Shown one piece after another: positions 24,159 through 58,595 of a DNA stretch of 64,000 bases. The position numbers and the translations under genes are program-made. The stretch is from Chitinophagaceae bacterium (lineage in GTDB: Bacteria; Bacteroidota; Bacteroidia; Chitinophagales; UBA10324): positions 105,500 through 169,499 of the forward strand of contig JADJAG010000012.1 in NCBI GenBank assembly GCA_016704325.1, in the 5' to 3' direction. How positions within the stretch are numbered: the stretch's first letter is position 1; each line of letters begins with the position of its first letter. The notes beneath the pieces are model-generated. The model was not told the origin of the DNA. It made no database searches and saw only the letters and a program-made list of their open reading frames with translations.

Positions 24159-26264
24159 ATGAAATCCATCCATTTTCTAACAAGCGCACTTGCATTCTTT
24201 GCACTATTCATTACCACAAACATGCTTTCTGCCCAGGTATTGCCTGTTAAGGAGTGGGACAAGCGTTTTGGTGGAAGCGGTTCTGACGCACTGTATACGA
24301 TACAGCAAACCACCGATGGGGGCTATCTCCTTGGAGGGGATTCTGATTCACCGGTAGGTGGTGATAAATCTCAAGGCAGTAAGGGCAGCACAGATTTTTG
24401 GATTTTAAAAACAAATGGAGCCGGAGTAAAGGAATGGGATAAAAGCTTTGGTGGAAATCTTGCGGAGAGTATGTATGCAGTAATGCAAACCAACGATGGA
24501 GGTTTTATTCTCGGTGGTGAATCCAAGTCAGGTATTAGTGGAGACAAAACACAAGATGCCCACGGCGGACTGGACTATTGGATTGTAAAAACAGATGCTT
24601 CCGGAACAAAGCAATGGGATGTAAGATTTGGAGGAAGCGCTGATGATGAACTTCGAAGCGTTCAGCAAACCATTGACGGCGGATATATCCTTGCAGGATT
24701 CTCCAGTTCGGGAATCAGTGGTGATAAATCAGAGGCAGGCCGGGGGGCAACTGACTATTGGTTGGTTAAAACGGATGCGAATGGAATCAAACAATGGGAT
24801 GCCAGGTTTGGGGGAGCATCCAATGATGAATTACGTTCTTGCAGTCAGACCATTGATGGAGGTTACATCCTGGCAGGCTTTTCAAAATCGGTTATCAGCG
24901 GAGATAAGACCATCGCATGCAAGGGTTCAACAGACTATTGGATCGTAAAGATAAATGCAGAAGGTGTAAAACAATGGGATGCCGTGTTTGGTGGAAGTGA
25001 CAGTGAATACCTGTATGCTATTCAGCAAACAGCCGATGAAGGTTACATACTCGGCGGATATTCAGAATCGGGAATCACCGGAGATGTAACAGAGCCGTGC
25101 ATAGGTGGTTTTGATTTTTGGATGGTAAAGACAGATACTTCCGGCGGAAAACAATGGGATAAGCGATTCGGAGGAAGCGGTTACGACAAGCAAAAGTTCA
25201 TTCAGCAGACAACAGATGGCGGATACCTTTTAGCAGGTTGGTCCGATTCAGGTATTAGCGGTGATAAAACACAGGCTAATGTGGGAAATGGTGATTACTG
25301 GGTTGTGAAGACGGATGCTACCGGTGTAAAAATGTGGGATGCTGCATTTGGAGGAACCCTGGACGATAAAATTCATTGTGTTCCACAAACCAATGATGGT
25401 GGTTATCTGCTTGGTGGCTATTCTTACTCTAACTCTGGAGGAGATGTTACACAAGCCAGCCAGGGGTTGAATGATTACTGGATCGTAAAAATTTCATCCA
25501 CTACTTCATTACAAAAATATTTTGTTGATGCAGATGGTGATGGGTTTGGGAATCCGGCACATGATACACTTTCTATGTTGCCACCATCCGGATTCGTTAC
25601 TAATAATAAAGATTGTGAAGATAGCCATCCTGAAATACATCCCGGAGCAGATGATCTATGCAATGGCATTGATGACAATTGCAACCTGCTGACAGATGAA
25701 AATGCTATGGCTATACCTAATATTTCACCGGCAGGTAGTATGGCAATATGTCCCGGCACACAGGTAACGTTTGCTACTGAATATACAGATAATGTCTCTT
25801 ACCAATGGATCAAAAACGGAGTTATCCTTTCCGGAGCAACTGGTCTGACTTTTCAAACCGGCAACAACGGAAGTTACGCGGTCGCAGCCACAAATGGATA
25901 TGGATGCAGTGCCATTTCCGCAGTTACGTTGATCAGTAAGCTAACAGGTCCTAACGCCGAAATAATACCATTGGGTGATTTGAATATTTGTCAATCAATG
26001 CAGGTTGCTTTACAAGCCAATGCAGGTTTCGGGTTTAATTATCAATGGCTGAATGGAAACAACAATATTCCCGGAGCAACCAATCAGATCTATGTTGCGA
26101 CCAAGGCTGCATCATACAAAGTAAAAGTTACTAATGGAGACGGTTGCAGCAAGCATTCGCCGGCTGTCCAGGTTACCAAATTATGTAAGGAGATTGCATC
26201 ATCAGAAACGGACAAAGCGGTTCAGCTTTACTTTATCCGAATCCAACGAAAGGAAGATTCATAA
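24159..26264 (+). CDS. Secreted 60-aa-repeat protein (7-8 repeats) plus MopE-like motif plus Ig-like domains; frameshifted before its T9SS CTD
   Basis: Signal peptide present. WD(K/A)(R/S)FGG...QQT.DGGY..(G/A)G...S...GDK........D(Y/F)W.VKT...G repeats with about 60-aa period. DADGDGFGN...DCEDSHPEIHPGADDLCNGIDDNCN. The frame ends at 26264 just where YPNP would begin. Confidence 0.8.
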   Translation: MKSIHFLTSALAFFALFITTNMLSAQVLPVKEWDKRFGGSGSDALYTIQQTTDGGYLLGGDSDSPVGGDKSQGSKGSTDFWILKTNGAGVKEWDKSFGGNLAESMYAVMQTNDGGFILGGESKSGISGDKTQDAHGGLDYWIVKTDASGTKQWDVRFGGSADDELRSVQQTIDGGYILAGFSSSGISGDKSEAGRGATDYWLVKTDANGIKQWDARFGGASNDELRSCSQTIDGGYILAGFSKSVISGDKTIACKGSTDYWIVKINAEGVKQWDAVFGGSDSEYLYAIQQTADEGYILGGYSESGITGDVTEPCIGGFDFWMVKTDTSGGKQWDKRFGGSGYDKQKFIQQTTDGGYLLAGWSDSGISGDKTQANVGNGDYWVVKTDATGVKMWDAAFGGTLDDKIHCVPQTNDGGYLLGGYSYSNSGGDVTQASQGLNDYWIVKISSTTSLQKYFVDADGDGFGNPAHDTLSMLPPSGFVTNNKDCEDSHPEIHPGADDLCNGIDDNCNLLTDENAMAIPNISPAGSMAICPGTQVTFATEYTDNVSYQWIKNGVILSGATGLTFQTGNNGSYAVAATNGYGCSAISAVTLISKLTGPNAEIIPLGDLNICQSMQVALQANAGFGFNYQWLNGNNNIPGATNQIYVATKAASYKVKVTNGDGCSKHSPAVQVTKLCKEIASSETDKAVQLYFIRIQRKEDS

Positions 26265-26269
26265 TAAGG

Positions 26270-26503
26270 TTGCTTTACAAATTAGTTTTGGAAACAGGGA
26301 ATAGCGGATCAGGTAGTTTTGACTCCATCAATTTATTCAATAGTATGGGAAAGCTCGTCTATTCAGAAAGTAGGGCACATTCAATTCCGGAGGAGATTGT
26401 GGAAATCACCTTGCCGGCTACTTGCCTGCCGGGAGTATACTTTGTGAAAGTTACAACAGGAAATATGGAATACTCAGGTAAACTGATGCTCTTAGACCAG
26501 TGA
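26270..26503 (+). pseudogene. T9SS CTD of the 24159 gene, displaced into another frame
   Basis: The +2 frame reads ...LLYPNPTKGRFIIRLLYKL...GVYFVKVTTGNMEYSGKLMLLDQ and is open from 26187. A single-base indel lies between 26187 and 26225. Confidence 0.7.
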
Positions 26504-26517
26504 AATGGCAATAAAAA

Positions 26518-26533
26518 TCCCTGAATTCAGGGA
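26518..26533. promoter_or_regulatory. Palindrome copy F (palindrome only, non-canonical spacing)
   Basis: Perfect tccctgaattcaggga sits 14 nt after the 26503 stop. A catctttgtg box follows after only 23 nt. This could be an operator, a terminator hairpin, or both. Confidence 0.4.
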
Positions 26534-26933: not shown

Positions 26934-28300
26934 ATGTTTCACACAAACCTTTACTCAAATAAGTTTGCGAAAACTATTGTTGTCCTTTTTGCAATCCTGC
27001 TCATAGACTTCTGGCAATATTCTCCTGCAAAGCACAAATACCCGGCACATGGACTCTCACCGGTAGCATGAATACGCCCCGTGTCTTCTGCTGCTGTCTT
27101 GTTACAAAGCGGCAAGGTACTTGTTTGTGGAGGTGGGGATGGTAGGTCAGACACTTGCCAGTGCAGAATTGTATGATCCGAATACAGGCATGTGGACGAT
27201 CACAGGTAGCATGGCTTGGCCCGCCCAGGTCATTCTGCCACTCTTCTTCCTGACGGAAGAGTTCTCATCGCGGGCGGATTGGTTTGCTTTATGCCTGTAC
27301 AACCGGAGAGTGCGGAAATCTATGACCCTTTAACAGAGATATGGACGCAATACAGCAAGCATGCAAGGTTCTCGTTGGGCGCATCGCGGCAGTATTGATT
27401 ACATCGGGAACTTTGCTGGCCAAGTTTTAGTAACCGGAGGGTCCTTAAACTCAAGTGAGGCGACTATGGAAATTGCAACATTGGCGATGCGGATTTACAA
27501 ACATCAGAGTTATACGATCCTGTTGCAGGACATTGGTCAGCACATCTAATCTGCCTGTTGGAAGATATTGGGATGGATCCCAGCCAATAGCAACATTACC
27601 TGATGGTAACATACTGATAGTTGGAGGTTGGAATTGCTGTCCATACCAGGCAATTAATGAAGCTGAAATATTTGACCTCACAAATCAATCATGGGTCAAG
27701 CGACAGCTAAAAGCAACTACAGCTAACTATGCTCCGATCGTTCTCAACACTGGCAAAGTGCTGGTTGCAGGGGGTGACAATGGTATACAGCCATCTAACG
27801 TAGATGTTGCAACCGCAGAACTATTTTGATCCGTTTACCGGAACATGGACCGCCACTGGAAATATGACGATTGGTAGAAATAATCATTCTGTTTCGCGAC
27901 TTGCTTAAAATGGACAGGTTCTTGCCTCAGGTGGTCATCATGGCGGGTGGGGAGTATGTTACGACTTGAATAGTTCAGAGCTTTTCGACCCTCATCAGGA
28001 ACCTGGTCACTAACCGGAAGCATGAATGGTCAAGGAGTGGACATACATCTAATGACCTTGTCCAAGCGGGCAAATTCTGGCGGTGGTGGCTCTTATTGGC
28101 TCTCCAGCGCCGAACTCTACACTCCCCCTTGCATAAGCGGTAGTACGATCTATGCTGACACCGATGGTGATTCATACGGAGATGCATCAAACAGTATAAT
28201 CGCCGAATCCTGTGATCTTCCTTTCGGTTACGTACTTAACAATACAGATTGCAACGATGCAGATGCCCTCCATTCATCCCGGCACAGAAGAAGTAATTAA
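26934..28300 (+). pseudogene. Kelch-repeat (galactose-oxidase-like) secreted protein, multiply frameshifted
   Basis: Kelch-like pieces sit in different frames: [18 protein letters not shown] (27121 ORF), [19 protein letters not shown]...[12 protein letters not shown] (27216), GQVLVTGG (27361), TLPDGNILIVGG...AEIFDLTNQSW...GKVLVAGG (27455), SAELYTPP...DTDGDSYGD (28022). Confidence 0.65.
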
Positions 28301-29225
28301 TTGCCTCGATGATAACTGCAACGGAATCATTGATGAAGGTAAGTGGATACAAAAAGCAAACTTCGCGGGTTCTGCCAGAGTCAATGCTGCTTCATTTACT
28401 ATTGGAGATAAGGCCTACCTCGGCACAGGAAAAACTTCAAGTGGTTCTTATCTGAAGGACCTGTGGGAGTATGATCCTGTTACCAATGTCTGGACACAGA
28501 AAGCAGACATGGGTGGAAAAAAAAGGTGCAAGGCAGTAGGATTTGCCATCGGAAACAAAGGTTATATCGGAACAGGATATGACCAGGATGGTTCTTTGAT
28601 AAAAAGCTTTGGGGAATATGACGTGGCTACCAATAGCTGGACGCAGAAGGCCGACTTCGGTGGTAGCGGAAGACAAAACGCTGTGGGCTTTGCTATCAAT
28701 GGCAAAGGATACATCGGCACCGGCGGAAACTTCTTAACACAGCACAATGATTTCTGGGAATATGATCCTGATACTAATCAGTGGACACAGAAAGCCAACG
28801 TGGGAGATACGTTAAGAGAAGCAGCCGTGGGATTTTCCATCGGAGAAAAAGGATACATCGGAACAGGCAGCAACAGCAATGGTTACAAAAATGATTTCTG
28901 GGAATATGATCCCACAACTGATACATGGACAGAGAAATCCGATTTCGCAGGCGGAGCAAGAAGTTCAGCATCCGGATTTTCAAATGACAGCAAGGGATAC
29001 CTGGGAACAGGATGGGATGGAAGCAGTCTTCATAAAGATTACTGGCAGTACGATCCGCTCACCGACACCTGGAATCAGATTGCCGATTTCGGCGGAACAG
29101 CACGCGCTTATGCAACCGGATTTTCAGTAAGTGGTAATTGCTATGTAGCAACCAGGAGGGCGATACATCAGGAAATGCGTACTATGATCTGTGGCAATAT
29201 GATCCTCCTCCCTTTGTTGGGTTAA
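28212..29225 (+). CDS. 'WEYDP' Kelch-like repeat segment (7 repeats), probably the middle part of the same broken gene
   Basis: Repeats of (F/L)WEYDP.T..WTQKADFGG..R..AVGF(A/S)I..KGYIGTG. Preceded by a MopE-like motif. The GTG 'start' is only a track artefact. The frame breaks again near 29140-29230. Confidence 0.6.
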   Translation: MIFLSVTYLTIQIATMQMPSIHPGTEEVINCLDDNCNGIIDEGKWIQKANFAGSARVNAASFTIGDKAYLGTGKTSSGSYLKDLWEYDPVTNVWTQKADMGGKKRCKAVGFAIGNKGYIGTGYDQDGSLIKSFGEYDVATNSWTQKADFGGSGRQNAVGFAINGKGYIGTGGNFLTQHNDFWEYDPDTNQWTQKANVGDTLREAAVGFSIGEKGYIGTGSNSNGYKNDFWEYDPTTDTWTEKSDFAGGARSSASGFSNDSKGYLGTGWDGSSLHKDYWQYDPLTDTWNQIADFGGTARAYATGFSVSGNCYVATRRAIHQEMRTMICGNMILLPLLG

Positions 29226-29231
29226 CGGTAT

Positions 29232-30107
29232 ATGCTGATGCTGATAACGATGGATTCGGTGATGCAGGCAACAGTCTTTTTTATTGCCGACTGTCCGGTA
29301 CCCAATGGATATGTAACAGACAGCACTGATTGTGATGATGCCAATGCAGCCATCAATCCTGCTGCAATAGAAATCTGCGATGGCATCGACAACAACTGTG
29401 ATGGCAATATTGATCCGCTCTTTACATTTTATGCAGATTCAGATGGTGACGGTTATGGCGATAACAATGCTTCCGTAACAGATTGCGCTCCACCTTCCGG
29501 TTATGTAACCAACAATACCGATTGCAATGATGCAAATGCAGCCATACATCCTGGTGCAACAGAAATTTGCAACGACATAGATGACAACTGTAATGCACAA
29601 ACTGATGAAGGCCTGCTCATTACTTTTTATGCCGATAACGACGGTGATCTCTATGGCAATGCAAACAACTCAACCCTTGCCTGCACCTTGCCCAATGGAT
29701 ATGTAACCGACAACACCGATTGCGATGATACCAATGCAAGCGTTTATCCAGACGCACCGGAAATTCTTTTCAACGGCATTGATGATGACTGCGATGGTTA
29801 TCTAGATGAATTTGGAACAGGCATTTTTTCATCAGCAAATACAGCATCTGTTTTCTCTCTCTTTCCCAATCCCACCAATGGTGAGTTTGAAGTTTACTTA
29901 CAACTTAATAATGAATTGAATGCAGAAGGAAAAATCGAAGTGATCAACCTGCTTGGCCAGGTTGTGTACAATAAAACAAGTGTATTGCTGAAAGGAAAGT
30001 TGCAGGCTGTAATTAATCTGAATGATGAAGCTGATGGATTATACTTAGTAAGAGTGAAGGTGGATGAACAGTTGTACTCCGGACTAATTGTTTTTGACAA
30101 GCAATAA
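29232..30107 (+). CDS. MopE-like metal-binding-motif repeats (x4) plus T9SS CTD, the 3' part of the broken gene
   Basis: YAD.DGDGYG....S...C..P.GYV.(D/N).TDC(D/N)D.N..I.P.A.E.C(D/N).IDDNC repeats. CTD is FSLFPNPTNGEFEVYL...GLYLVRV. Confidence 0.7.
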   Translation: MLMLITMDSVMQATVFFIADCPVPNGYVTDSTDCDDANAAINPAAIEICDGIDNNCDGNIDPLFTFYADSDGDGYGDNNASVTDCAPPSGYVTNNTDCNDANAAIHPGATEICNDIDDNCNAQTDEGLLITFYADNDGDLYGNANNSTLACTLPNGYVTDNTDCDDTNASVYPDAPEILFNGIDDDCDGYLDEFGTGIFSSANTASVFSLFPNPTNGEFEVYLQLNNELNAEGKIEVINLLGQVVYNKTSVLLKGKLQAVINLNDEADGLYLVRVKVDEQLYSGLIVFDKQ

Positions 30108-30120
30108 AATTAACGGAGCC

Positions 30121-30800
30121 AGCAATCCCGAAGGGATGAAATGATTATAGAGATAAAATCAAAAGAAGATAGCAGAATCCCGAAGGGATGACAGAATTAC
30201 TGCAACTAAAACAAAGGCAACAATAATCACGAATTGAAAAACTAATCACGAAAGGAATAAAATTTTTTATGGCAGGCACATTTTCACAAATCTACATCCA
30301 GGTTGTTTTTGCTGTGAAAGGAAGGCAAAACCTGATTCAAAAAGCATGGAAAGATGACCTGCACAAATACATGGCAGGAATCATTAAAGGCAAAAAGCAA
30401 AAATCCATTATCGTTAATGGCATGCCTGATCATATCCATGCATTCATTGGATTGAAGCCAGCAATGGCAGTTTCGGATCTGGTGCGAGACATCAAAAACA
30501 ATTCTACCAATTTTATCAATGATCGTAAGCTGGTCAAAGGAAAATTTTCATGGCAGGACGGATACGGTTCATTTTCTTACGGTCATTCACAGATTGATAA
30601 AGTGTACAAATACATTCTGAATCAAGAACAGCACCATCGTAAAAAAACATTTAGGGAAGAATATCTCGACTTCCTTAAAAAATTTGAGGTGCCTTACGAT
30701 GAAAAATATTTGTTTGAATGGATTGAATGATGGTGTCACCCCTACGGGGTTGGTGTGGGTGAAGATTCATTTTCTATAATCCTGGCATCCCTTCGGGATT
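30121..30800 (+). mobile_element. RAYT/IS200-like unit: Y1 transposase flanked by REP-like hairpins
   Basis: atcccgaagggat at 30125-30137 and 30177-30189. The inverted copy atcccttcgggat is at 30787-30799. A further hairpin acccctacggggt is at about 30738-30750. Confidence 0.7.
30269..30730 (+). CDS. IS200/IS605-family Y1 (HUH) transposase, REP-associated (RAYT-like)
   Basis: 153 aa. HUH motif MPDHIHAFIGL. Tyr region SWQDGYGSFSY. Typical size, and a single gene with no TnpB. Confidence 0.8.
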   Translation: MAGTFSQIYIQVVFAVKGRQNLIQKAWKDDLHKYMAGIIKGKKQKSIIVNGMPDHIHAFIGLKPAMAVSDLVRDIKNNSTNFINDRKLVKGKFSWQDGYGSFSYGHSQIDKVYKYILNQEQHHRKKTFREEYLDFLKKFEVPYDEKYLFEWIE

Positions 30801-31082: not shown

Positions 31083-32420
31083 ATGAAAAAAGCAAACACA
31101 ATTTTTCTTTATCCTCATCCTCATCCTCTTTTTTATGAAATTCAGCTTCGTGCTCAAAATGCTCCATCAATCGAATGGCAAAAATGTTTTGGTGGAAGCT
31201 CAAATGATTATGCAAGGTCCATTCAGCAAACCATCGATGGCGGATTAATTATTGCGGGCTATTCTTATTCCAATGATGGTGATGTTTCCGGCAATCACGG
31301 TGGTGCCGATTACTGGATCGTTAAAACAGATGAAGTTGGAAATACAATATGGCAAAAATGCTTTGGTGGAACCGGTAACGACTATGCCTATTCCATTCAG
31401 CAAACTACTGATGGAGGTTTCATCGCAACAGGTGTTTCCAAATCAAATGATGGCGATGTATCGGGCAATCATGGGTGGTCTGATATATGGACACTAAAAC
31501 TTGATTCATCCGGAAACATAACCTGGAGTACTTGCTCAGGCGGAAGTTACAATGAAGCAGCTTACTCAGTCAGAGAGACTATTAATGGCGATTATATAAT
31601 AGCCGGTCATACAAACTCTATTGATGGGGATGTGGTTGTTGGAGATGATAATTGGTACACGAATCAATATTGGATTATTCTTCTCGACTCTTCCGGTAAT
31701 CTTAAAGACCAGGGCGGTGGAGGTGACTATACGGCCCATGAACTTGCATACGATATTCAGCCCATTGGAGATGGAGGATATGTTTTTGTCGGGCAGGAGA
31801 ACACCGGGGGAAATTACGAAGATTATTTTTCTATTAATTGGATTGACTCGTCATTAGCTTATGCATGGTCGGGTGTAGGGTTTTTAGGTGAACCTGCCGG
31901 TGCATATGCTGTGGCTCTTACCAGTAATAACGGCTTTGTTATTGCTGGCTATGCTGATACTTATTACTATGGCGATGCGAACTATGCCATCCTGAATCTG
32001 GATTCAAATCAAAACATCAATTGGTTTGCTGAATTGGGCGGAAGTGGGAGCGACATCGCCTGGTCGGTTCAGCAAACTTCAGATAAAGGGTATATTGCTG
32101 CCGGCTATACCGGATCTAATAATGGTGATGTATCCGGAAATCATGGCGGTAATGATTACTGGATTGTGTACCTGGATTCAGCAGGAAACCTAGCCTGGCA
32201 AAAAGCACTAGGTGGGAGTAATAATGATGAAGCCTTTTCCGTTCAGCAAACTGTCGACAATGGATTCATTATAGCTGGAAATGCAAACTCATATGATGGA
32301 AATGTTTCTGGTAGCCATGGGGGCAGTGATTACTGGATCGTGAAACTTTCATGCTATATGTCGCAAGCTTTTATGCCGACAGTGATAATGATGGCTTCGG
32401 CAATGTTGCTGCAAGTGTAA
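31083..32420 (+). CDS. 58-aa-repeat secreted protein, frameshifted before its MopE/CTD module
   Basis: WQKCFGG...SIQQT.DGG.I..G.S.SNDGDVSGNHGG.DYWIVK.D..GN repeats. The signal peptide looks corrupted (MKKANTIFLYPHPHPLF), whereas an alternative frame gives FFFILILILFF. The frame is lost at T-run 32369-32372. Confidence 0.7.
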   Translation: MKKANTIFLYPHPHPLFYEIQLRAQNAPSIEWQKCFGGSSNDYARSIQQTIDGGLIIAGYSYSNDGDVSGNHGGADYWIVKTDEVGNTIWQKCFGGTGNDYAYSIQQTTDGGFIATGVSKSNDGDVSGNHGWSDIWTLKLDSSGNITWSTCSGGSYNEAAYSVRETINGDYIIAGHTNSIDGDVVVGDDNWYTNQYWIILLDSSGNLKDQGGGGDYTAHELAYDIQPIGDGGYVFVGQENTGGNYEDYFSINWIDSSLAYAWSGVGFLGEPAGAYAVALTSNNGFVIAGYADTYYYGDANYAILNLDSNQNINWFAELGGSGSDIAWSVQQTSDKGYIAAGYTGSNNGDVSGNHGGNDYWIVYLDSAGNLAWQKALGGSNNDEAFSVQQTVDNGFIIAGNANSYDGNVSGSHGGSDYWIVKLSCYMSQAFMPTVIMMASAMLLQV

Positions 32421-32854
32421 TTACATCGGACTGCTCTCAACCTGCCGGGTACATTGCTGATACCACCGATTGTGACGATACCAATGAAAACATTAACCCT
32501 GATGCCAATGAAATTCTTTTCAACGGCATTGATGATAACTGCGATGGTTTCATAGACGAATTCGGAACAGATATTTATTCGTCACCAAATACGGTGTCTG
32601 ATTTCTCCCTCTTCCCCAATCCTACTAATGGTGAGTTTGTGGTTCACTTACAACTTAATAATGAACTCAATGCCGAAGCAAAGATCGAAGTGATCAGCCT
32701 GCTGGGCCAGGTAGTGTGTAGTAAAGCAAGTGCAGTGTTGAAAGGAAAATTACAGGACGCAATTAAACTGAATGATGAGGTTGATGGAATATACTTAGTA
32801 AGATTGAGAGTGAATGACGAAGCATATTATTGGCAAATTGTTTATCAGAAATAA
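32351..32854 (+). CDS. MopE-like motif plus T9SS CTD (continuation of the 31083 gene in another frame)
   Basis: SFYADSDNDGFGN...TDCDDTNENINPDANEILFNGIDDNCDGFIDE...FSLFPNPTNGEFVVHL...GIYLVRL. Confidence 0.7.
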   Translation: MLYVASFYADSDNDGFGNVAASVITSDCSQPAGYIADTTDCDDTNENINPDANEILFNGIDDNCDGFIDEFGTDIYSSPNTVSDFSLFPNPTNGEFVVHLQLNNELNAEAKIEVISLLGQVVCSKASAVLKGKLQDAIKLNDEVDGIYLVRLRVNDEAYYWQIVYQK

Positions 32855-34328: not shown

Positions 34329-34568
34329 ATGAAAAACCTCATTCTTACTCCCATGCTGCTCCTTGTTTCAGCTTCACTATGTGCCCAGACACAGGATTTC
34401 TGGATCCAACGTGCTGATTTTGGCGGAGGGGACTGTCTGGGAGCGTTTGGTTTCAGTATTAGTAATAAGGGATATGTCGGTTGTGGTAATTTCTGGGAAT
34501 ATGATCCACTGCTTGACTCGTGGTCGCAAAAAGCGGATTTTGAGGAGGCTACCGCATGGACCCGGTAG
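34329..34568 (+). CDS. 5' part (signal peptide plus first repeats) of a 'WEYDP' Kelch-like repeat protein, frameshifted
   Basis: MKNLILTPMLLLVSASLCAQ..RADFGGG...GFSISNKGYVG..FWEYDPLLDSWSQKADF. The frame is lost at about 34541-34543 (GG read as G). Confidence 0.65.
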   Translation: MKNLILTPMLLLVSASLCAQTQDFWIQRADFGGGDCLGAFGFSISNKGYVGCGNFWEYDPLLDSWSQKADFEEATAWTR

Positions 34569-35497
34569 GTTTCAGTATTGGTAATAAAGGATATATGGGA
34601 ACCGGACTTGATGATTATTTTAGAAAGGATTTCTGGGAATATGATCCCCTGTTAAATTCATGGACCCAACTGGCAGATTTCGGTGGTGTAGCCCGTGCTG
34701 AAGCCGTTGGTTTCAGCATAGGTAATAAAGGATACATCGGAACTGGATACGACGCAGACTCGCATAATTTAAAAGATTTTTGGGAGTATGATCCTGACTT
34801 GAACAATTGGATTCAAAAAACAGATTTTCTTTCCGTCGCTTATGGTGCTGTTGGATTTTCCATAGGAGGGAAGGGATACATGGGAACGGGAAATAAGAAT
34901 AGCGGCCTTCAGAAAGGATTTGCGGAATATGATCCTGTTACTGATATATGGATAAAAAAAGCAGATTTCGGGGGAACTGCACGCTTTCAAGCTGTTGGCT
35001 TCAGCATTGGCAGCAAGGGATATCTTGGAACGGGATCAGTTACAAAGGATTTCTGGGAATACGATCCTGCCTTGAACACCTGGACACAGAAAGTAGATTT
35101 CGGGGGAATCGCCCGCTCTCAAGCTGTTGGTTTCAGCATTGGCAACAAGGGATATCTTGGAACGGGAGCAATATTATCCGGCGCGCCAACCAGCGATTTC
35201 TGGGAGTATACACCCGAATTTGGAGTTGGGATTTCATCAATTACAATTGACGATGGGATTTTCTCTCTCTTTCCAAATCCTAATGACGGCATGATAACAA
35301 TAACGGCAACCTTCGGGCAGGAAGAAACTCTCACCATAAGAATCATTGATCTTACCGGAAGAGAATTGTTTTCAGAAATCATTGGCAATGTAACCGGCAC
35401 CTTTTCCAAACAACTTGATCTGGGTAATTATTCAAGCGGCACTTACTTCATGCAATTAATTCATGACGGGCAGAAAGAAGTTCACAAAATGCAATGA
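34556..35497 (+). CDS. 'WEYDP' Kelch-like repeat protein with T9SS CTD (continuation of 34329)
   Basis: Six FWEYDP..N.W.QK.DFGG.AR..AVGFSIG.KGY.GTG repeats. CTD is FSLFPNPNDGMITI...GTYFMQL. Confidence 0.75.
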   Translation: MDPVGFSIGNKGYMGTGLDDYFRKDFWEYDPLLNSWTQLADFGGVARAEAVGFSIGNKGYIGTGYDADSHNLKDFWEYDPDLNNWIQKTDFLSVAYGAVGFSIGGKGYMGTGNKNSGLQKGFAEYDPVTDIWIKKADFGGTARFQAVGFSIGSKGYLGTGSVTKDFWEYDPALNTWTQKVDFGGIARSQAVGFSIGNKGYLGTGAILSGAPTSDFWEYTPEFGVGISSITIDDGIFSLFPNPNDGMITITATFGQEETLTIRIIDLTGRELFSEIIGNVTGTFSKQLDLGNYSSGTYFMQLIHDGQKEVHKMQ

Positions 35498-38579: not shown

Positions 38580-38788
38580 CCATCGCTGAGTTTTCCAGTC
38601 CAAAACAATCCATCATCATTCGTGTGCTCGATTTCTCAGGAAAAGAATTATACTTGGAAAATATTGGCAACATAACCGGCACCTTTTCCAAACAACTTGA
38701 TCTCAGCAATTTTTCTCAGGGGACTTATTTACTTGAGCTGATTCACAACGGACAACGGGAGGTGAAAAAGCTGGTAATCCAAAAATAA
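38549..38788 (+). pseudogene. T9SS CTD of the 35724 gene, displaced into another frame
   Basis: VYPNPTNGIVTIAEFSSPKQSIIIRVLDFSGKELYLENIGNITGTFSKQLDLSNFSQGTYLLELIHNGQREVKKLVIQK. Paralogous to the CTD ending at 35497. Confidence 0.7.
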
Positions 38789-45330: not shown

Positions 45331-45333
45331 GGG

Positions 45334-46608: not shown

Positions 46609-46613
46609 GTTGT

Positions 46614-47627: not shown

Positions 47628-47829
47628 GAAGGAGCCACAAGCCGTATACCTTATATACAATACTGAAATATTTTGACTTGTATGGTCCATATCGTATTTC
47701 AAGATTTGCTAATGATCAATTATATCCTTCAGTTTTTAGTAATCTCTAAAAACCGGCTCATTTACTACTTCCTCATTCTTTTCTCCTATCGGTTAAGAAT
47801 GAAGATTTTTTGGAGCTGCTTAAATTAAA

Positions 47830-50679
47830 CTATTGCAGTTCAGGTTTTAATTTTTTGTAAGGTTCATTCGATCCGATATACGTGTTCCATTCTTCCGTAG
47901 TGAAGTTGCGGGTGATTTCATTCAGCAACAGGGTGCTGAGGTGTTCTGTTTTTAAATCAAATTGCCTGATGGCGTTATCAGCGCATGCAACAAAGACCTT
48001 TCCATCAGGAGAAAGCGTAAGTGCCAGCACTTGCCGGTTGATATCCTTTATTACAATAGGTTTCAAAGCAAGGTTGGCAAGATTATAGACATAGATTGAC
48101 CGGTTGCCAGATACAGAAACCAATACATTCAGGGTTTCATCAATGGCTATGAAATCGACACTATTAGTATTATCGGTAAGAATTTTTACGAGGTCTCCTT
48201 TGTGATTATAGAGATGAATTTTTCCATCAGAACTTCCGAAACCGAGAAAGTTACCATTGGTACTGTAGGTACCAGACTGTATTCTTGCCGGTCCATTATT
48301 TCCGATCAATTTCTTTGAACTGGAAGGAATGTGTTGCAAGTACATTTTGCCATCCTCGGTGCCAACAGCCAGTGTGTTTTTATCGTTGCTCATTCCAAGT
48401 GATTTAATACGGGTCTCAAATGGATATTTTTGCAGCGCTGTATTTTGTGACCAAACAATAACGGTGCTGTCACGTCCTCCCGTTGCAAACAGGCTTTCAT
48501 CATGGCTAAAGGCAGCATCACGCACCAAACCGCGATGACCCGTTAGGCGCGGAGAAACAATCTGCTTTTCTGAATCATAGAAGAGAATAGAATGATCTTC
48601 ATAAGCAGCAATGGCCAACTTTCCGTGTTGACAGAGATAGCCCGTATTCAACATCATGTTATTACCCGGTATTTGCAATGTCTTTTGCAAAGAATATTCG
48701 GTGGAAGAATACCGGGATAATGATCCGTCGATGCACAAAACAGCAATGCTCTTGCCTTCGTTATCAAAGGCAATGGTTTTCACTTCTTTTCTAGCCTGGA
48801 TAATAATCGGTTGAAAGCCCGTATCCATTTTTTTCAGGTTTTCATAAAGTGCACTATAAAGTTCAGGATCCTGTGTATTCCCGCCGTTTGCTTCACTCAG
48901 CAAATAGGATTCGCACGCTAACAATGCGGCAAGTTGTTTATCATTGGTAGCTTGAAGCGATTGAAAAGCAAGTGCCTGGCTTAATGCAAGCTGGCGCAGG
49001 CGATTTGCTTCCGACTGTGCGGAGTCTGCTTTCTGCCGTTGCACTTCTGCTTCACGTGTCTTCTGTTCGGCCACCTGCTTCTCCTGTAAAGCAATTTGTT
49101 GCTGGGCGATGGCAAACTCCGACTGCTCACTTGCTTTTAATGCTTCTTGCTCTGCAATTATTTTCTGTTCTCCGGCAATCTTTGATTGTTGCTCCGCATA
49201 TAGTTTAGCTTCTACAGCCTGTTTTGATGAAAGCAGTGCCAGTTCGTTTGATTTTTCCGCAAGGTCTTTTTGATTAAGGGCTTCCTGTGTTTTTTGACTG
49301 GCAATTTCCGTTTGTATCATAGCTTCATTACGTTGCCTGATGGAAAAAACTGTGAAGCCCGAGAGAATGATGATCAATGCAAGGCTTGCTCCCAGCGCCA
49401 CATTTCTTCGACGGTTTCTTTTTCTGCGAACGGTGCGTTTGCTTTTATCAATGAACTGTTTCTGTTCCGGATTTAGAAACAGCTTGTTTTCAAATGGTGC
49501 CAGGTATTGCAGGTCAGCATCGCCCAGCAGGATGGAACGTTTCTGAAAATCGTTGTAGCGGTTGATGATAAAGTGGCGCACTTCCAGCAACTGTTTTTCC
49601 ACCCAACTTATTTGGTCATAGATTTTTGCAGCCAATGCATCATGCCGTAATTCATACTTGCCGTTGTCATCCATTTCTTTAAGGATGCGAAGGTCAACGA
49701 ATTGACGAAGTTCCGGTTCTATGTCCTCCTGCGTCAGCTCTTTACCTAATGCCCTGGTAAAATCGATAATCTCAGAAAGAGACATCTGTTTTTTAGTGCC
49801 TTCATCAGAAACAAAAGATTTCAGGATGGCAAGGGTATTTTCCGGGCTTTTTGTTTTTGCAATTTGTTCATCCAGGAATTCCGCAAGCACATCAGTAATC
49901 TGTCCCGTGCGTTCCAGTAATGCTTCATTGAAAACAGGATGCGCAGGATCGGAAATCACAGCCTCTTTATAAAGTTTATCAAGATATACCTGCAGGTAGG
50001 TAAGCTCCACCGCCGATTTTTCACTGCCTAACCGTTCCAATACTTTTTCCGGAAAATTGTCAGCTACTTCCAGGTTGAAAAGGCCGGCTGGTTCGGTAAT
50101 CACACGCTTTGCATTGGCGCGTGTCATGCGTTCGATGTGAATACGGTTATTGAAAAAGTCAGGTATTTGATCTTCAAACCTGGCAATATGTTCAAGATAT
50201 TCCCCGCGAATGACAAATATGAATTTGCAGCTTAGTCCACTTCCCAATGCCTCATGAAGTGCTTTTACAAACTGTTCCATTTCGGCATCGGATCCGAAAA
50301 TGAATAACTCTTCAAACTGATCGAACAATAAGTAAACAGGTTTGAAGTAATCGAGGTAAACGGATTTGATATTTTGAGAGAGGGAATTCTTTTCTGACAA
50401 AGGCACCAGGGATAAGCCCACCAATGCTTTTCTTAAAGAATCGTTGATGTTGGCGCCACGCCTGATTAGAACCGGCATCCAGTCGGCATCCTGGAACTTT
50501 CCTGCGAGTCCGCACTGAATCAGGCTGGTCTTTCCTGTTCCGCTGGATCCGTATACCAGCAACAGGTTACTGTCGAATGTTTTGTAGTATAGTTCTTCCA
50601 CTTCCCGTTCGCGGCCGAAGAAGATATCGCGATCTTCGCTGGTATAAGAGTCGAGAAATTTGAAGGGGGTTTTCGCCAT
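47830..50679 (-). CDS. Membrane-anchored P-loop (STAND-like) NTPase, then TM helix, coiled coil and WD40 repeats
   Basis: N-terminus is PFKFLDSYTSEDRDIFFGREREVEELY. Walker A GSSGTGKTS (nt 50527-50553). Walker B VYLLFDQFEE. Basic stretch RRKRNRRRN followed by VALGASLALIIILSGFTVFSI (nt ~49339-49401). Q/E/A-rich coiled coil. C-terminal WD40-like repeats (..GHRGLVRDAAFSHDESLFATGGRDSTVIVW..). Confidence 0.8.
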   Translation of the reverse strand: MAKTPFKFLDSYTSEDRDIFFGREREVEELYYKTFDSNLLLVYGSSGTGKTSLIQCGLAGKFQDADWMPVLIRRGANINDSLRKALVGLSLVPLSEKNSLSQNIKSVYLDYFKPVYLLFDQFEELFIFGSDAEMEQFVKALHEALGSGLSCKFIFVIRGEYLEHIARFEDQIPDFFNNRIHIERMTRANAKRVITEPAGLFNLEVADNFPEKVLERLGSEKSAVELTYLQVYLDKLYKEAVISDPAHPVFNEALLERTGQITDVLAEFLDEQIAKTKSPENTLAILKSFVSDEGTKKQMSLSEIIDFTRALGKELTQEDIEPELRQFVDLRILKEMDDNGKYELRHDALAAKIYDQISWVEKQLLEVRHFIINRYNDFQKRSILLGDADLQYLAPFENKLFLNPEQKQFIDKSKRTVRRKRNRRRNVALGASLALIIILSGFTVFSIRQRNEAMIQTEIASQKTQEALNQKDLAEKSNELALLSSKQAVEAKLYAEQQSKIAGEQKIIAEQEALKASEQSEFAIAQQQIALQEKQVAEQKTREAEVQRQKADSAQSEANRLRQLALSQALAFQSLQATNDKQLAALLACESYLLSEANGGNTQDPELYSALYENLKKMDTGFQPIIIQARKEVKTIAFDNEGKSIAVLCIDGSLSRYSSTEYSLQKTLQIPGNNMMLNTGYLCQHGKLAIAAYEDHSILFYDSEKQIVSPRLTGHRGLVRDAAFSHDESLFATGGRDSTVIVWSQNTALQKYPFETRIKSLGMSNDKNTLAVGTEDGKMYLQHIPSSSKKLIGNNGPARIQSGTYSTNGNFLGFGSSDGKIHLYNHKGDLVKILTDNTNSVDFIAIDETLNVLVSVSGNRSIYVYNLANLALKPIVIKDINRQVLALTLSPDGKVFVACADNAIRQFDLKTEHLSTLLLNEITRNFTTEEWNTYIGSNEPYKKLKPELQ

Positions 50680-50685
50680 TTTTCA

Positions 50686-51720
50686 TCATGCTGTAACACG
50701 CGGAGAATCAAGAATGCTATTGATCATATCATTAAACTGCTGCAAAAGATCCGGGTAACTGCTTAATTGGGACAAGTCACATTTCTCCGTTACTTCTGTG
50801 CCTACATAATGCAGTTTTCCATATTGAAATTTGGTGTAAAGAAAAATGTCTTTCTTGATAGAAAACTTTTCCTTCTGGTCGATCACTTCTGTTCTTGTGT
50901 CAATTATAAGCGGCGAGAGATTCAGGTATTCATGAGGCTCATTAATGTCCTTGAGTAATAGCACGGCATTGCTGTCTGCAAATATTCCATGTTGAACTTC
51001 TGTGCCTTTAAAGTCAGAATCGGAACTATTCAATAAGTCCATCAGGTGATTGAAAGATGCATTGCGGTGTTTCTTTTTCAAAACATTGATCTGCCGAACT
51101 GTAACCAGTTTATAGTTGATGAAAAAGGAAATATGCTGCAGGATAGACGAAAGTTTTTCCTGGTATTCCACACAGCGCTTTTCAATCTCATCAGTAGTAA
51201 GGTTGATCTGGTAATGGCCGATTTCATTTCTTTCCGGTACCCAGAAATCAAGCAGTTCAAAGAAGTTATTGCTGAAGCAGGTACTCTTGCCCGTAAAGTG
51301 TGACGTTTGTGATTCTGTGAATACTTTGCAGATTGCCCTGATCAGCCATGAATAACTTCCGAGTGTGAGTTGGTTAAACCTGTTTTGAAACTGCAACATG
51401 AAGTCATCAGACAAAACAACCTTATTTTTCAACCGCTCTTCCCATAACTGCGCGACCAATACGAAGGAAAGGAATTGCATGGTTCGTTCAATGGTTTTAA
51501 ACACCTGGTCCAGTCTCCCGCGATCGAGGTTGCGCATGGAACCAGAAAATAGCCGGCGTAACTCCACACCAATTGGCCAGGGCAGATTACGAATGATGAG
51601 GTCGCCAAGTATCCTGGTATCCACTTCTTCATCCACTTCGTCAGCAATCAGGTATTTCTGTAATATAGGTTTGTGTTCAGCCATCCTGGAGAATACATCC
51701 CTGATGAGTAGCTCATTCAT
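50686..51720 (-). CDS. Hypothetical alpha-helical protein with Rx4H (HEPN-like) motif, first gene of the STAND operon
   Basis: The ATG at 51720 gives MNELLIRDVF (the track start 51753 is TTG). ERNEIGHY is at nt 51214-51231. Its stop is 6 nt from the NTPase start. Confidence 0.6.
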   Translation of the reverse strand: MNELLIRDVFSRMAEHKPILQKYLIADEVDEEVDTRILGDLIIRNLPWPIGVELRRLFSGSMRNLDRGRLDQVFKTIERTMQFLSFVLVAQLWEERLKNKVVLSDDFMLQFQNRFNQLTLGSYSWLIRAICKVFTESQTSHFTGKSTCFSNNFFELLDFWVPERNEIGHYQINLTTDEIEKRCVEYQEKLSSILQHISFFINYKLVTVRQINVLKKKHRNASFNHLMDLLNSSDSDFKGTEVQHGIFADSNAVLLLKDINEPHEYLNLSPLIIDTRTEVIDQKEKFSIKKDIFLYTKFQYGKLHYVGTEVTEKCDLSQLSSYPDLLQQFNDMINSILDSPRVTA

Positions 51721-51809
51721 AGGTTGATCCGATAATCCAAATGATGCAACCAATTTAGTAATAATATTTAGTATTTATTCTCAAAAGTTGACTGAATTAA
51801 AACTGGTTA

Positions 51810-52350: not shown

Positions 52351-54336
52351 ATGAGAATGTTTACAATACTGTTTGCATTATTAGTTGCTACTCATACTAT
52401 TTCAGGGCAGACAACAGCACCTGCCATACTTTGGCAAAAACTTCTTGGAGGAAATCTCGGCGAAGAGGCCCGTTATATACAATTAACTCCCGATGGTGGT
52501 TGTGTATTCACCGGCTTTGCACGATCTGCCAATGGTGATGTGACAGTTAACAAAGGAGATGATGATTTATGGGTTGTGAAATTAGATGAGAATGGTGGAA
52601 TACAATGGCAGCATACATTTGGCGGTACCGGCCAGGAGTGGGGCAGACACATTCAGCTAACTGCTGATGGCGGTTATATCCTGGCGGGACACAATACTAC
52701 CGCAAATGAAAATGGAGATGTACATGGCAACCAGGGAGGTTTTGATTTCTGGATTTTGAAATTGAGCAACTCCGGGCAATTGGAATGGCAGCAATCACTT
52801 GGTGGCTCATCCCTCGACCTGGCATACAGGATACAACAAACCGCAGACGGTAATTATGTAGTATTTGGCGGAACAAAATCTATTGATGGAGACGTAACAG
52901 GAAAGATTACTTCGGATGCAGATTATTGGTTGGTAAAGCTGGATCCGGAAGGTAACATCTTGTGGGAAAAGACAATCGGGGGTATTGGACATGAAGAAGG
53001 AAGCTCTATTGAATTAACCTATGATGGAGGCTTCATACTCTCTGGTTTTTCTGATTCCAAAAATGGCGATGTAACAGGCAATCACGGCGATTTTGATGCA
53101 CACCTGGTAAAGACAGATAGTGACGGAAACATACAATGGTCTAAGTGTTATGGTGGAATATACAATGATGCAGCAAGGGATGCCCGGCAGACTGCAGACG
53201 GTGGTTATATTATGGCCGGTTACACGAATTCCGATGATGGTGAGGTGATTGGCAATCATGGCGGACAGGATGCATGGGTGGTGAAATTGGATGCAGATGG
53301 ATTTATTCAATGGCAGAAACCACTTGGCGGCAGTTCATTGGAATATGCATATTATGCTGAGCAGGCACGCGATAATAGTGGTTATTTAATAGTCGGACAC
53401 AACGGATCTGATGATGGTGATGTTACCGGCAATCATGGATTATATGATTGCTGGGTCGTGAAACTTGACGCGGAGGGTAATCTGATTTGGCAAAAATCCC
53501 TGGGAGGATCGGACCAGGATTATGGCAGGGCCGTCACCCAGACCTATACTGGCGATTATTTGATATCCGGTTATGCAAGTTCAATTGATGGAGATGTTTG
53601 TGGCAAGCATGGAGGGCCGGGATCAAAGGACGCCTGGATTGTTAAACTGCAGGGTAATTGCTTACTTCAACCCTATTACCGGGACAATGATGGTGACAGC
53701 TATGGGGATCCGGCTGTTTCAACAAATAGCTGTGTACCCCCTCCGGAATTCGTGTCTAATAGTTCAGACTGCAATGATGACAGTACCCATATTCATCCCA
53801 ATGCAGATGAACTTTTCAATGGAATTGACGATGATTGTGATGTTGACATTGATGAAGGATGGCGTACTCCAATTAATAGCAGTGTACCTGTTCCTGGTAT
53901 AGAAAACATACAGATGTATAGTAATTCTATTGTTAATTTATTTGGAGCTGTTATGGATTCTGTGGATAGGAATGAAAAACAAGCACTTTCCGGTGTAGAA
54001 GAAAATAAAACGGATAACTCACCGAATCATTTTTTCGACAATTCCAGCTTGACCGAAATAATGAATGCGGTAGTACTGCAATCAATAAACATCTATCCCA
54101 ACCCGGTAACCACAATAATGCTGCTGTCCTTTTTCTTAGATAAGCCAATAGTTGTTGAAATAGCGCTCTTGAATGCCATTGGCAAACCAATAGCTACTAT
54201 CACAAAGGCTGAGTTTGCTGCAGGCAACCATGAATTTAACTTTAATCGCGGATCACTTGATACGGGAATCTATTTCCTGCAACTGAGAACTCATGACGGT
54301 GCAATTATGAAGAAAATAATTTTGGCACAGTACTAA
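52351..54336 (+). CDS. 58-aa-repeat secreted protein plus MopE-like motif plus T9SS CTD (paralog of 41473-43482)
   Basis: Signal peptide present. Collinear with the 41473 protein (ILWQKLLGGNLGEEARYIQLTPDGGCVFTGFARS...). YRDNDGDSYGD...DCNDDSTHIHP. CTD is IYPNPVTTIMLL...GIYFLQL. Confidence 0.85.
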   Translation: MRMFTILFALLVATHTISGQTTAPAILWQKLLGGNLGEEARYIQLTPDGGCVFTGFARSANGDVTVNKGDDDLWVVKLDENGGIQWQHTFGGTGQEWGRHIQLTADGGYILAGHNTTANENGDVHGNQGGFDFWILKLSNSGQLEWQQSLGGSSLDLAYRIQQTADGNYVVFGGTKSIDGDVTGKITSDADYWLVKLDPEGNILWEKTIGGIGHEEGSSIELTYDGGFILSGFSDSKNGDVTGNHGDFDAHLVKTDSDGNIQWSKCYGGIYNDAARDARQTADGGYIMAGYTNSDDGEVIGNHGGQDAWVVKLDADGFIQWQKPLGGSSLEYAYYAEQARDNSGYLIVGHNGSDDGDVTGNHGLYDCWVVKLDAEGNLIWQKSLGGSDQDYGRAVTQTYTGDYLISGYASSIDGDVCGKHGGPGSKDAWIVKLQGNCLLQPYYRDNDGDSYGDPAVSTNSCVPPPEFVSNSSDCNDDSTHIHPNADELFNGIDDDCDVDIDEGWRTPINSSVPVPGIENIQMYSNSIVNLFGAVMDSVDRNEKQALSGVEENKTDNSPNHFFDNSSLTEIMNAVVLQSINIYPNPVTTIMLLSFFLDKPIVVEIALLNAIGKPIATITKAEFAAGNHEFNFNRGSLDTGIYFLQLRTHDGAIMKKIILAQY

Positions 54337-56049: not shown

Positions 56050-56504
56050 GCAGGTAATGAGTTGATTTTCTTTCAACACTATGTTTCTGTAAGAGATAGA
56101 ACCTTTCAAAAAAGAATAAACGCGAAGTCGCTAAGTCGTCAGGTTTTTTTGGAAGCATTGATAACTCATTGCTTGTCGCTTATGATCAATTAGTGTAGTT
56201 AATCCGTACTCGCGCTCCCTCAACGTTTTATTTTTTTTGTAGTATTACAAGTACTTATAATTTGTGATGTGAACCATATTAACTACTGAAGGTTTCTCAG
56301 CATACAAATTTATTAATACGGCAACTATCGAGGCGATATTCACTTTAATGGAGAAGCTTTTATTCCACGAAGTTGTATGATTCATCCTATGTCTTATGAT
56401 GGAGGTCATTGCTACAGTTGATGCCGATCACATTTTATCGGAAAGGCCTCGGTTAATTTTGCCTGTTACCTTATAACAAGGTGAACTTAAAAAAAACTAT
56501 AGTT

Positions 56505-58595
56505 ATGAAAACGATGATAACAAGAAGTGTAATGGCAGTACTGATACTGTTTACATCCTTTATCAGGTTGAATGCACAAGTAACTTTTGAAAAGACATTT
56601 GACATCAGCGGTGATGATGTGGCAAACGATGTAAGACAAACGAGTGATGGTGGATTTATTATTTGCGGATCAGTTGATTATTCAGCTATGTCGAGTGGAG
56701 ATGTTATACTCATCAGGACAAATGCAAATGGTGACACCTTATGGACTAAAATTTATGGCGGAATAGGTGCTGATGCAGGTAATTCAGTGCTTCAAACCAG
56801 TGATGGGGGATTTATTGTTGCCGGCAGCACCAACAGCTGGGGAGCCGGTTCCACGGATGCCTATCTCATTAAAACAGATGCCTCCGGTAATGTACAATGG
56901 AGCAAAACAATCGGTACACCTTCCGGTGATGCTGCTTATGGTATTATTCAAAAAGCAGATGGTGGCTATGTTTTTTCAGGTTATGAGAATTCTTTCCTGT
57001 TGAATGGACAATCGCATCTGGTAAGTACGGATGCATTAGGAAATGTATTATGGTCGAAAACATATGGCATTTCAACGAGAACAAATTTCAGCTTTGCCCT
57101 GGAATCAACAGATGAAGGTGGTTATGTATTAGGCGGATATGAGAATCAGTTTTTATCTAATAATTATGAATACAGCTTGATTAAAACAGATGCATCCGGA
57201 AATTTAATTTGGTACAAAACAATCGGAGATGTTGATGTAGACAGGAACTTCACCCTGGCACGAAGCAATGACGGCGGTTTTGTTGTGGCAGGTACCAACT
57301 TCACGGTATCAAGCAGTGAGATCAATCTTGTAAAAGTGGATGCCAATGGTGTGGTGGTATGGACAAAAAAATATGGTGGCATTTACAATGAGTTTGCATT
57401 TGCACTTACTGCTATGTCAGATGGTGGTTTTGTTTTTGGAGGATTTTCTGCCAGTTTCTCTCCTAACAATAATAACAACGCCTATTTCGGTAAAACGGAT
57501 GCTGCAGGCAATCTCTTATGGAGTAAGGTGATGGATGGAACAGGATATGATATAATCTATGCCATCAGAGAAGCCAGTGATGGTGGATTGGTTTTGGTAG
57601 GCGTAAAGGATGAAGTAGCAGGTGTCAGCGGCAATTTGTATTTCGCTAAAACAGATGCTGACGGCAATACCGGTTGTAATCTTACGGTTAATTCCATAGT
57701 TTCCATTCCACCAACCATCGTGGGCCCGGTAACTGCCAATGGCACTTCCATTCCAACAGTTACAAACATTACACCCATAGTTTACGGAGGAGCTGACATT
57801 AACACGATTTGTGCTTCCTGCTCCATTACCGCAACTATTACACCTTCCGGAGATGTTTCATTCTGCTCCGGAACTTCACTTACCCTGCTTGCGAATGCCG
57901 GAACCGGTATCAGCTATCAATGGTATAGAAACGGTGCAATTATCACCGGTGCAACTGACCAGGCTTTTACAACCAAGAAGGGTGGAAAATTCAGTGTTAC
58001 AGAATACAGCAGTCTGGGATGCAGTGCCAGTTCAGAAAAAGTAGTTGTTACCAAACTGGAAAGCCCTGTAGCTACGATTACACCATTAGGAGATCTTGAT
58101 ATCTGTGCAACCGGTTTTGTAGACCTCCAGGCAAATGCAGGAATGGGTTACAGTTATCAGTGGCTGAAAGGAAGTAATCTTATTGCCGGTGAAACAAACC
58201 AAATTTATACTGCGACAATAAAAGGAAGTTTTAAAGTATCGGTTAAGGCCGACAATGGTTGTGCAAGCTTGTCGAAAGCAGTAAAGGTTACGAAGTCTTG
58301 TAAGGAATCAGACTTATCGGATATGCAGGCTGAAAGCATTTTGCAGTGTTACCCCAATCCATCCAACGGGCAATTCACCCTGGATGTTAAAATGGACAAT
58401 GGTGTAACCGGCAATGCAACGCTGGAGATTGTGAATGTACTGAATCAGCGTGTTTATGCACAACAGGTTTTTCTGGCAGATGGCATGCTGAATACAGAAG
58501 TTGATGCTGTTTCTTTTTTGGAGGATGGCATTTATTTAGTCAGGTTAACAACCGGTAACCAGGTTTTCTCTGAACGCCTGATGATCGTACGATAA
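56505..58595 (+). CDS. Secreted protein with divergent 'DGG(F/Y)' repeats plus Ig-like domains plus T9SS CTD
   Basis: Starts at MKTMITRSVMAVLILF.. (the track start is GTG 56481). Repeats of ..Q(T/K).DGG(F/Y)(I/V)..G......D..LIKTDA.GN..W.K. Three Ig-like units (YQWYRNG..ITGAT). CTD is CYPNPSNGQFTL...GIYLVRL. Confidence 0.8.
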   Translation: MKTMITRSVMAVLILFTSFIRLNAQVTFEKTFDISGDDVANDVRQTSDGGFIICGSVDYSAMSSGDVILIRTNANGDTLWTKIYGGIGADAGNSVLQTSDGGFIVAGSTNSWGAGSTDAYLIKTDASGNVQWSKTIGTPSGDAAYGIIQKADGGYVFSGYENSFLLNGQSHLVSTDALGNVLWSKTYGISTRTNFSFALESTDEGGYVLGGYENQFLSNNYEYSLIKTDASGNLIWYKTIGDVDVDRNFTLARSNDGGFVVAGTNFTVSSSEINLVKVDANGVVVWTKKYGGIYNEFAFALTAMSDGGFVFGGFSASFSPNNNNNAYFGKTDAAGNLLWSKVMDGTGYDIIYAIREASDGGLVLVGVKDEVAGVSGNLYFAKTDADGNTGCNLTVNSIVSIPPTIVGPVTANGTSIPTVTNITPIVYGGADINTICASCSITATITPSGDVSFCSGTSLTLLANAGTGISYQWYRNGAIITGATDQAFTTKKGGKFSVTEYSSLGCSASSEKVVVTKLESPVATITPLGDLDICATGFVDLQANAGMGYSYQWLKGSNLIAGETNQIYTATIKGSFKVSVKADNGCASLSKAVKVTKSCKESDLSDMQAESILQCYPNPSNGQFTLDVKMDNGVTGNATLEIVNVLNQRVYAQQVFLADGMLNTEVDAVSFLEDGIYLVRLTTGNQVFSERLMIVR

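Follow-up and report, generated by a model that had tools for sequence, protein, structure and literature searches.

Seven genes for predicted type IX secretion system (T9SS) cargo lie between positions 24159 and 58595 of the 64,000-nucleotide stretch analysed here (the window), which comes from contig JADJAG010000012.1 of a Chitinophagaceae bacterium. They are built from tandem repeats of 58–61 amino acids (aa), and structural modelling identifies this repeat as one blade of a seven-bladed, four-stranded β-propeller. Homology links it to the C-terminal propeller of CylK, a cyanobacterial enzyme, and at greater distance to the SBBP and delta-60 repeats. As a whole, the data are probably best explained by seven-bladed surface binding modules that are related to CylK, stabilised by Ca2+ and exported by the T9SS.

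An alignment of six propellers of the window (A1) was used as profile query and as AlphaFold input. CylK was the only match of the A1 profile among all PDB sequences and was matched over all seven blades (hmmsearch, E 1e-32). AlphaFold modelling of the repeat block, which a preliminary description of the window had proposed as a check, gave a seven-bladed propeller with 28 strands (predicted local distance difference test, pLDDT, 76; predicted template modelling score, pTM, 0.78). When this model was compared with the PDB by Foldseek, CylK was again the top match (E 3e-25; template modelling score on the query, TMq, 0.80). The runner-up had E 3e-9, and the matches after CylK, in the range 1e-9 to 1e-8, were a designed propeller and lectins of Photorhabdus. 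The seven CylK blades align in register to a hidden Markov model (HMM) of the repeat unit. Positions W1, G6, D/E11, G28, G42, D45, W/Y47, K50, D/N52, G55 and N56 are common to the unit and CylK, and the shared blade signature reads G..D.W..K.D..GN..W...G...(D/E). The motifs QQT.DGG and S.S.DGDV.GNH are particular to the Bacteroidota subfamily and absent from CylK.

The CylK propeller is the only close solved relative of the Bacteroidota propeller domain. CylK from Cylindrospermum licheniforme (PDB 7RON and 7FH6) likewise has seven blades of ~55–65 aa with a long internal loop. According to the published structure, the internal loops of this seven-bladed propeller are unusually long and a Ca2+ ion sits at each blade junction; the active site lies at the interface with the N-terminal Ca-binding domain, which contributes Arg105, and involves Tyr473 and Asp440 (PMC8916777). 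CylK is a cytoplasmic biosynthetic enzyme, whereas the window proteins are predicted T9SS cargo, and they lack the N-terminal Ca2+-binding β-roll domain that provides the catalytic Arg105. Their propeller begins 24–54 residues from the start of the open reading frame (ORF), right after the signal peptide and with no N-terminal domain. The catalytic arrangement of CylK therefore cannot exist in the window proteins. The preliminary description had named assignment to a characterised family with known function as the outcome that would refute its reading. This came true by half: the profile does tie the repeat to a characterised protein, CylK, but since the function of CylK depends on the N-terminal domain missing here, no function was transferred.

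The consensus of 33 aligned window units is W(Q/D)K.(L/F)GG...(D/E).A.S(I/V)QQT.DGG(Y/F)I.AG.S.S.DGDV.GNHG..DYW(I/V)VKLD..GN, and a motif scan of the window genes gave a unit spacing of 58–61 aa. The unit HMM was built from these 33 units and run on all six-frame ORFs of the genome to which the window belongs (4.92 Mb, 12 contigs). It detected 326 units in 53 ORFs with scores of up to 100 bits per unit, far above chance; the repeat described earlier was confirmed at its genes. Seven units each were found in 24159, 31083, 41473, 52351 and 56481/56505, 14 units (two propellers) in 35724, and 2+5 units in the frameshifted pair 39370/39815. The window thus contains seven cargo genes with eight propellers, instead of the 'at least eight' genes counted previously. 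Across the genome, 37 of 38 complete domains have exactly seven units and the remaining one has six. Over 250 units, W1, G6, G7, D/E11, T19, D21, G22, G23, G28, S30, S32, G35, D36, G42, D45, W47, K50 and G55 were near-invariant, position 11 being acidic in 98%, and positions 9, 10, 12, 14, 17, 20, 29, 31, 33, 43, 44, 53 and 54 were variable.

The cargo genes and their parts are as follows.

24159–26264, plus strand: cargo gene with signal peptide, seven-blade propeller, MopE-like motif and two Ig_7 domains.
About 24243–25523, plus strand: propeller of 24159, belonging to the 'WD..FGG / SGDK' subfamily.
26189–26500, plus strand: type A C-terminal domain (CTD) of 24159, continuing out of frame.
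31083–32854, plus strand: cargo gene split by a frameshift, with its propeller at 31161–32405.
T-run near 32366, plus strand: frameshift of 31083.
ORF 32351–32854, plus strand: MopE-like motif and CTD of 31083.
35724–38785, plus strand: double-propeller cargo gene with propellers at 35787–37070 and 37194–38480 and a MopE-like spacer between them.
38528–38785, plus strand: CTD of 35724, out of frame.
39370–40933, plus strand: cargo gene interrupted near 39815 by a frameshift of one base, with 2+5 blades followed by a type A CTD.
41473–43482, plus strand: intact cargo gene with signal peptide, propeller (41539–42810), MopE-like motif, linker and type A CTD.
52351–54336, plus strand: intact cargo gene with signal peptide, propeller (52417–53688), MopE-like motif, linker and type A CTD.
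56505–58595, plus strand: divergent member (ORF also numbered 56481) with seven blades at about 56559–57671, after which come a pair of Ig_7 domains and the type A CTD.

The modular combination of the propeller bodies with MopE-like motifs (PF11617), immunoglobulin (Ig)-like domains (Ig_7, PF19081) and type A CTDs (PF18962/TIGR04183) had been recognised before and holds. The CTD was above cut-off and in frame in 39815, 41473, 52351 and 56481. Signal peptides were judged by eye from the sequence without a predictor; 24159, 35724, 39370, 41473, 52351 and 56505 have an N-terminus that is hydrophobic and ends with A-Q or G-Q just before blade 1, and the signal peptide of 31083 looks degenerate. 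The divergent gene 56505 has short loops and a period of about 51–52 aa; its membership, previously proposed, was confirmed (hhalign 100%, E 2e-39). Kelch-repeat propellers (28212–30107 and 34556–35497) carry MopE-like and CTD tails that also follow the propellers with the 58-aa repeat, and thus unrelated propeller bodies have a common C-terminal cassette.

A frameshift separates the CTD or the remaining propeller from the rest in four of the seven window genes (24159, 31083, 35724 and 39370). The break regions are 26150–26500, 32330–32390, 38500–38785 and 39790–39850. Those of 24159 and 35724 lie immediately ahead of the CTD, and that of 39370/39815 is a one-base gain in a short G-run. Broken family genes are enriched here (4/7 in the window vs about 2/31 elsewhere in the genome; Fisher P 0.006), as are orphan CTD ORFs, of which five of the 33 in the genome lie at 26–39 kb of the window (P 0.001). 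An IS200-like Y1 transposase (PF01797, E 2e-26) is located at 30269–30730, between a broken Kelch/MopE/CTD gene and 31083.

Conservation was analysed in 70 homologous propellers with 35–86% identity to 52351. The conserved columns are identical in every blade and no blade-specific conserved column was detected in this set, to which the CylK numbering of Tyr473 and Asp440 was not mapped. Such rotationally symmetric conservation speaks against one asymmetric active site being conserved. A shared scaffold whose specificity positions vary would agree with it, and so would seven equivalent sites. Among the matches listed, homologues are fused to PKD, fn3, Ig, CHU_C, SprB, dockerin and Kelch domains, which are typical of surface proteins, and no recurrent catalytic domain was seen in them. 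Given the symmetric conservation and the missing N-terminal domain of CylK, the propellers are probably to be read as binding modules and not as CylK-type enzymes.

In each gene, a predicted Sec signal peptide is followed directly by the seven-bladed propeller, then by optional MopE-like Cys/Asp motifs and Ig-like spacers, and finally by the type A CTD, which is predicted to send the protein through the T9SS to the cell surface or into the medium. By analogy with CylK, the acidic residues D/E11, D45 and D/N52, which are common to all CylK blades, may hold blade-bridging Ca2+. The S.S.DGDV.GNHG loop may be a scaffold element specific to the Bacteroidota subfamily. The propeller may then act as an adhesin- or lectin-like surface binding module, and specificity among the roughly 38 paralogues of the genome would come from the variable positions flanking the conserved loops.

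The same symmetry could also be taken as a sign of a multivalent lectin comparable to Photorhabdus PLL/PHL or tachylectin-type propeller lectins, in which the S.S.DGDV.GNHG..D.W loop would form an equivalent sugar or metal site in each blade, seven per propeller. The sevenfold conservation extends to polar residues of the loop (D, D, N and H), and the Photorhabdus lectins, which are likewise seven-bladed with blade-wise equivalent sites, rank directly behind CylK among the natural fold neighbours of the A1 model and of the model of the lipoprotein 44068 described below. However, the likeness is confined to the fold (Foldseek E about 1e-8, TMq 0.56–0.60, 10–11% identity): in PLL/PHL, a chain of 344 aa forms seven blades of roughly 49 aa each, and there is no match at the sequence level at ~10% identity. 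Moreover, the 24159 subfamily (9/39 propellers) has SGDK in place of the DGDV-type motif, 56505 lacks this motif, and the equally long loops of CylK serve as scaffold. A lectin of this kind is thus considered possible but unlikely.

A secreted enzyme, in which the propeller itself would catalyse for instance a CylK-like alkyl transfer or a lyase or hydrolase reaction on an extracellular substrate, would agree with the fact that the closest solved relative is an enzyme, and PL24 lyases and sialidases are found among the distant Foldseek matches. This is very unlikely in our view, as the CylK active site needs Arg105 from the N-terminal Ca-binding domain (PMC8916777), which is absent here, none of the residues conserved across the 70 homologues is confined to a particular blade, and a number of about 38 paralogues in a genome would be unusual for a single enzymatic activity. 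The more specific proposal of a CylK-type enzyme was rejected on the missing N-terminal domain and the symmetric conservation.

Several points weigh against the preferred interpretation as surface binding modules. Propellers of the same fold can be enzymes, as CylK, Vgb and PL24 lyases demonstrate. The S.S.DGDV.GNHG loops belong to the low-confidence parts of the A1 model, with pLDDT <50 in several blades, and this leaves the role of the loop a conjecture. The putative Ca2+ ligands were named solely from the conserved acidic positions shared with CylK. The frameshifts were seen in the assembly alone and may reflect real decay or local assembly error. Finally, a literature search found no experimental study of any member of the subfamily.

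Two lipoproteins encoded in an operon between the cargo genes are degenerate members of the same propeller fold.

44068–45330, minus strand: lipoprotein with lipobox LSTGC and a degenerate propeller; last gene of the nSTAND1 operon.
45334–46608, minus strand: lipoprotein with lipobox FISC, a paralogue of 44068 with a more degenerate propeller.

The unit HMM found one unit in 44068, and BLASTP connected this protein via its last two blades to many family members (E 1e-8 to 1e-9). AlphaFold modelled 44068 as a propeller with about 28 strands (pLDDT 78, pTM 0.80), whose best PDB match was CylK (Foldseek E 1e-14, TMq 0.69). In hhalign, 44068 matched A1 with 96.3% as a single sequence and with 98.9% (E 2e-17) together with three orthologues. 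The result for 45334 as a single sequence was not significant (hhalign 12.6% vs A1), but it rose to 96.9% (E 2e-10) with three orthologues from two related genomes, and both lipoproteins are full-length paralogues of each other (hhalign 97.8%, E 1e-12). The vestigial repeats that the preliminary description had noticed in both proteins were thereby corroborated, with the caveat that profile comparisons of repeat proteins can come out generous.

The operon (44068–51753, minus strand) comprises an unannotated protein, an nSTAND1 NTPase-WD40 protein, an OMP_b-brl_2 barrel and the two propeller lipoproteins. It recurs in a genome of the same genus (G001, C1:142457–148997) and in one of another genus (G018, C117:531–13377), each time beside propeller-CTD genes. 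In G001, the same nSTAND1 operon and lipoprotein pair are followed by three intact tandem propeller-CTD genes, and in G018, one propeller-CTD gene adjoins the operon and the lipoprotein pair is present in two copies. The neighbourhood is therefore conserved in kind, not in content. It is conceivable, though we regard it as quite unlikely, that the sevenfold S.S.DGDV.GNHG..D.W loops are metal or glycan ligand sites and that the lipoproteins act as envelope partners or sensors of the secreted propellers. If this were true, few uncharacterised families of multivalent surface binders from environmental Bacteroidota would be larger.

The cluster had been described as a local expansion, which is read here as a recent tandem expansion that would have made the window copies in place. 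Its density would agree with this, since seven genes were found in 34.4 kb vs 0.27 expected (Poisson P about 1.5e-8). A maximum-likelihood tree was calculated from all 39 propellers of the genome including the eight from the window. In this tree, 41473 and 52351 are clear sisters (support 99/89), and 31083 is weakly joined as sister to the first of the two 35724 propellers, which is also in line with local duplication. The eight window propellers are, however, not grouped: they require six label changes, no better than shuffled labels, which average 7.4 and do as well in 49 of 500 cases. The propeller of 24159 is placed in the 'WD..FGG / SGDK' clade of nine, whose remaining eight members are spread over five further contigs; the partner of the second 35724 propeller is the second one in another double-propeller gene, located on contig 4; that of 56481, in a long-branch join, is a gene on contig 8; and the nearest relative of 39370/39815 is on another contig. 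Even in the closest pair, 41473/52351, synonymous sites are saturated (proportion of synonymous differences, pS, 0.70; synonymous divergence, dS, about 2), and this duplication is thus old. For the propeller, the ratio of nonsynonymous to synonymous divergence (dN/dS) is 0.08, which indicates strong purifying selection, and for the part downstream of it 0.37. In addition, the family is large in close relatives, and the cluster found at this operon in G001, of the same genus, differs in composition. A recent tandem expansion was rejected on the polyphyletic placement and the saturated dS and is regarded as highly improbable. The cluster is instead probably an old, partly broken assemblage of diverse family members next to the nSTAND1 operon.

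Scans with the Pfam and NCBIfam libraries gave no model at its cut-off for the repeat, and the earlier statement that it could not be assigned to a named family still applies to the curated models used. Its suggested kinship with delta-60 and β-propeller repeats was supported by the four-stranded blades of the AlphaFold model and by sub-threshold matches. NF047494 (SBBP propeller lipoprotein, LipL53 family) matched with E 8e-20 to 9e-13 and at best 70.9 bits, well short of its equivalog cut-off of 400 bits, which shows homology and not family membership. TIGR02608 (delta-60) reached 20–31 bits vs a cut-off of 76.5 bits, DUF5122 matched weakly in the lipoprotein 45334 only, and PF06739 (SBBP) gave no match even at E<=10. 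SBBP propellers (PF06739 and the Leptospira LipL53-family lipoprotein NF047494) likewise consist of ~60-aa repeats in secreted or lipoprotein contexts and share the core G.(S/T).S...G..D.(F/W).(V/A)K(L).., while the delta-60 (TIGR02608)/DUF5122 propeller has a similar period and the same hydrophobic-strand logic. For SBBP, delta-60 and T9SS propellers, the literature search returned only mentions of the Leptospira LipL53 type and the CylK papers.

Matches to DUF4438, PqqD, DUF746 and EMC1 were treated as repeat-driven artefacts because no stretch was individually significant. The N-terminal DUF4438 model exceeded its gathering score (31 bits vs 24.9; seen across the set of 31083, 35724, 41473 and 52351). 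PqqD reached 67 bits in one homologue (P0007) vs a cut-off of 23.4. Both look like false annotations that arise when scores are summed over the repeats. A precomputed Pfam accession, PF26094.1, is attached to many homologues among the matches listed and may be a recent family covering the propeller domain; no mention of it was found in the literature.

The propeller is a very common, functionally uncharacterised secreted-protein domain of Bacteroidota. The genome of the window contains 40 ORFs with at least five units, corresponding to about 38 genes after merging of split ORFs and to 2.1% of the DNA; 34 of these 40 ORFs have an in-frame type A CTD. The profile search for the taxonomic range, which had been suggested earlier, found the domain in 30 of 31 genomes of the same order. 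Genomes of the same bacterial family mostly have 17–95 matches and a few only 4–13, and of 201 genomes sampled evenly across the phylum, 46 had a match at E<=1e-20. A word-indexed public search yielded at least 7,879 matches among 8,000 candidates. Those listed came from Chitinophagales, Saprospiraceae, Flavobacteriales, Bacteroidia and Chlorobi and carried names such as 'T9SS type A sorting domain-containing protein', 'hypothetical protein' and 'uncharacterized delta-60 repeat protein', the last being a JGI label on some homologues. When the representatives of 1.84 billion public protein clusters were searched exhaustively with the profile, 148,336 matched at E<=1e-3 and 32,983 at E<=1e-30.

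With an HMM built from the CTD tails of the window and iterated once, about 419 type A CTD-like ORFs were counted in the 4.9-Mb genome and about 24 in the 64-kb window (932–60953). The T9SS cargo set is therefore very large, and the window can be considered a cargo island. On contig C5, a 4,983-aa open frame (54292–69240, minus strand) begins with one family propeller and contains several MopE-like motifs; no type A CTD was detected in it with the CTD HMM.

Generic database names are already attached to this very common family, which is neither a new system nor a new local invention. Nevertheless, a domain that occupies about 2% of the genome is named by no curated model in the libraries used. 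The link to CylK gives annotators a structural template including the Ca2+ sites at the blade junctions, and it is also the reason against transferring the enzymatic function of CylK. The false Pfam calls above cut-off (DUF4438 and PqqD) are a practical warning for annotation. For T9SS biology, the family represents a large block of predicted cargo.

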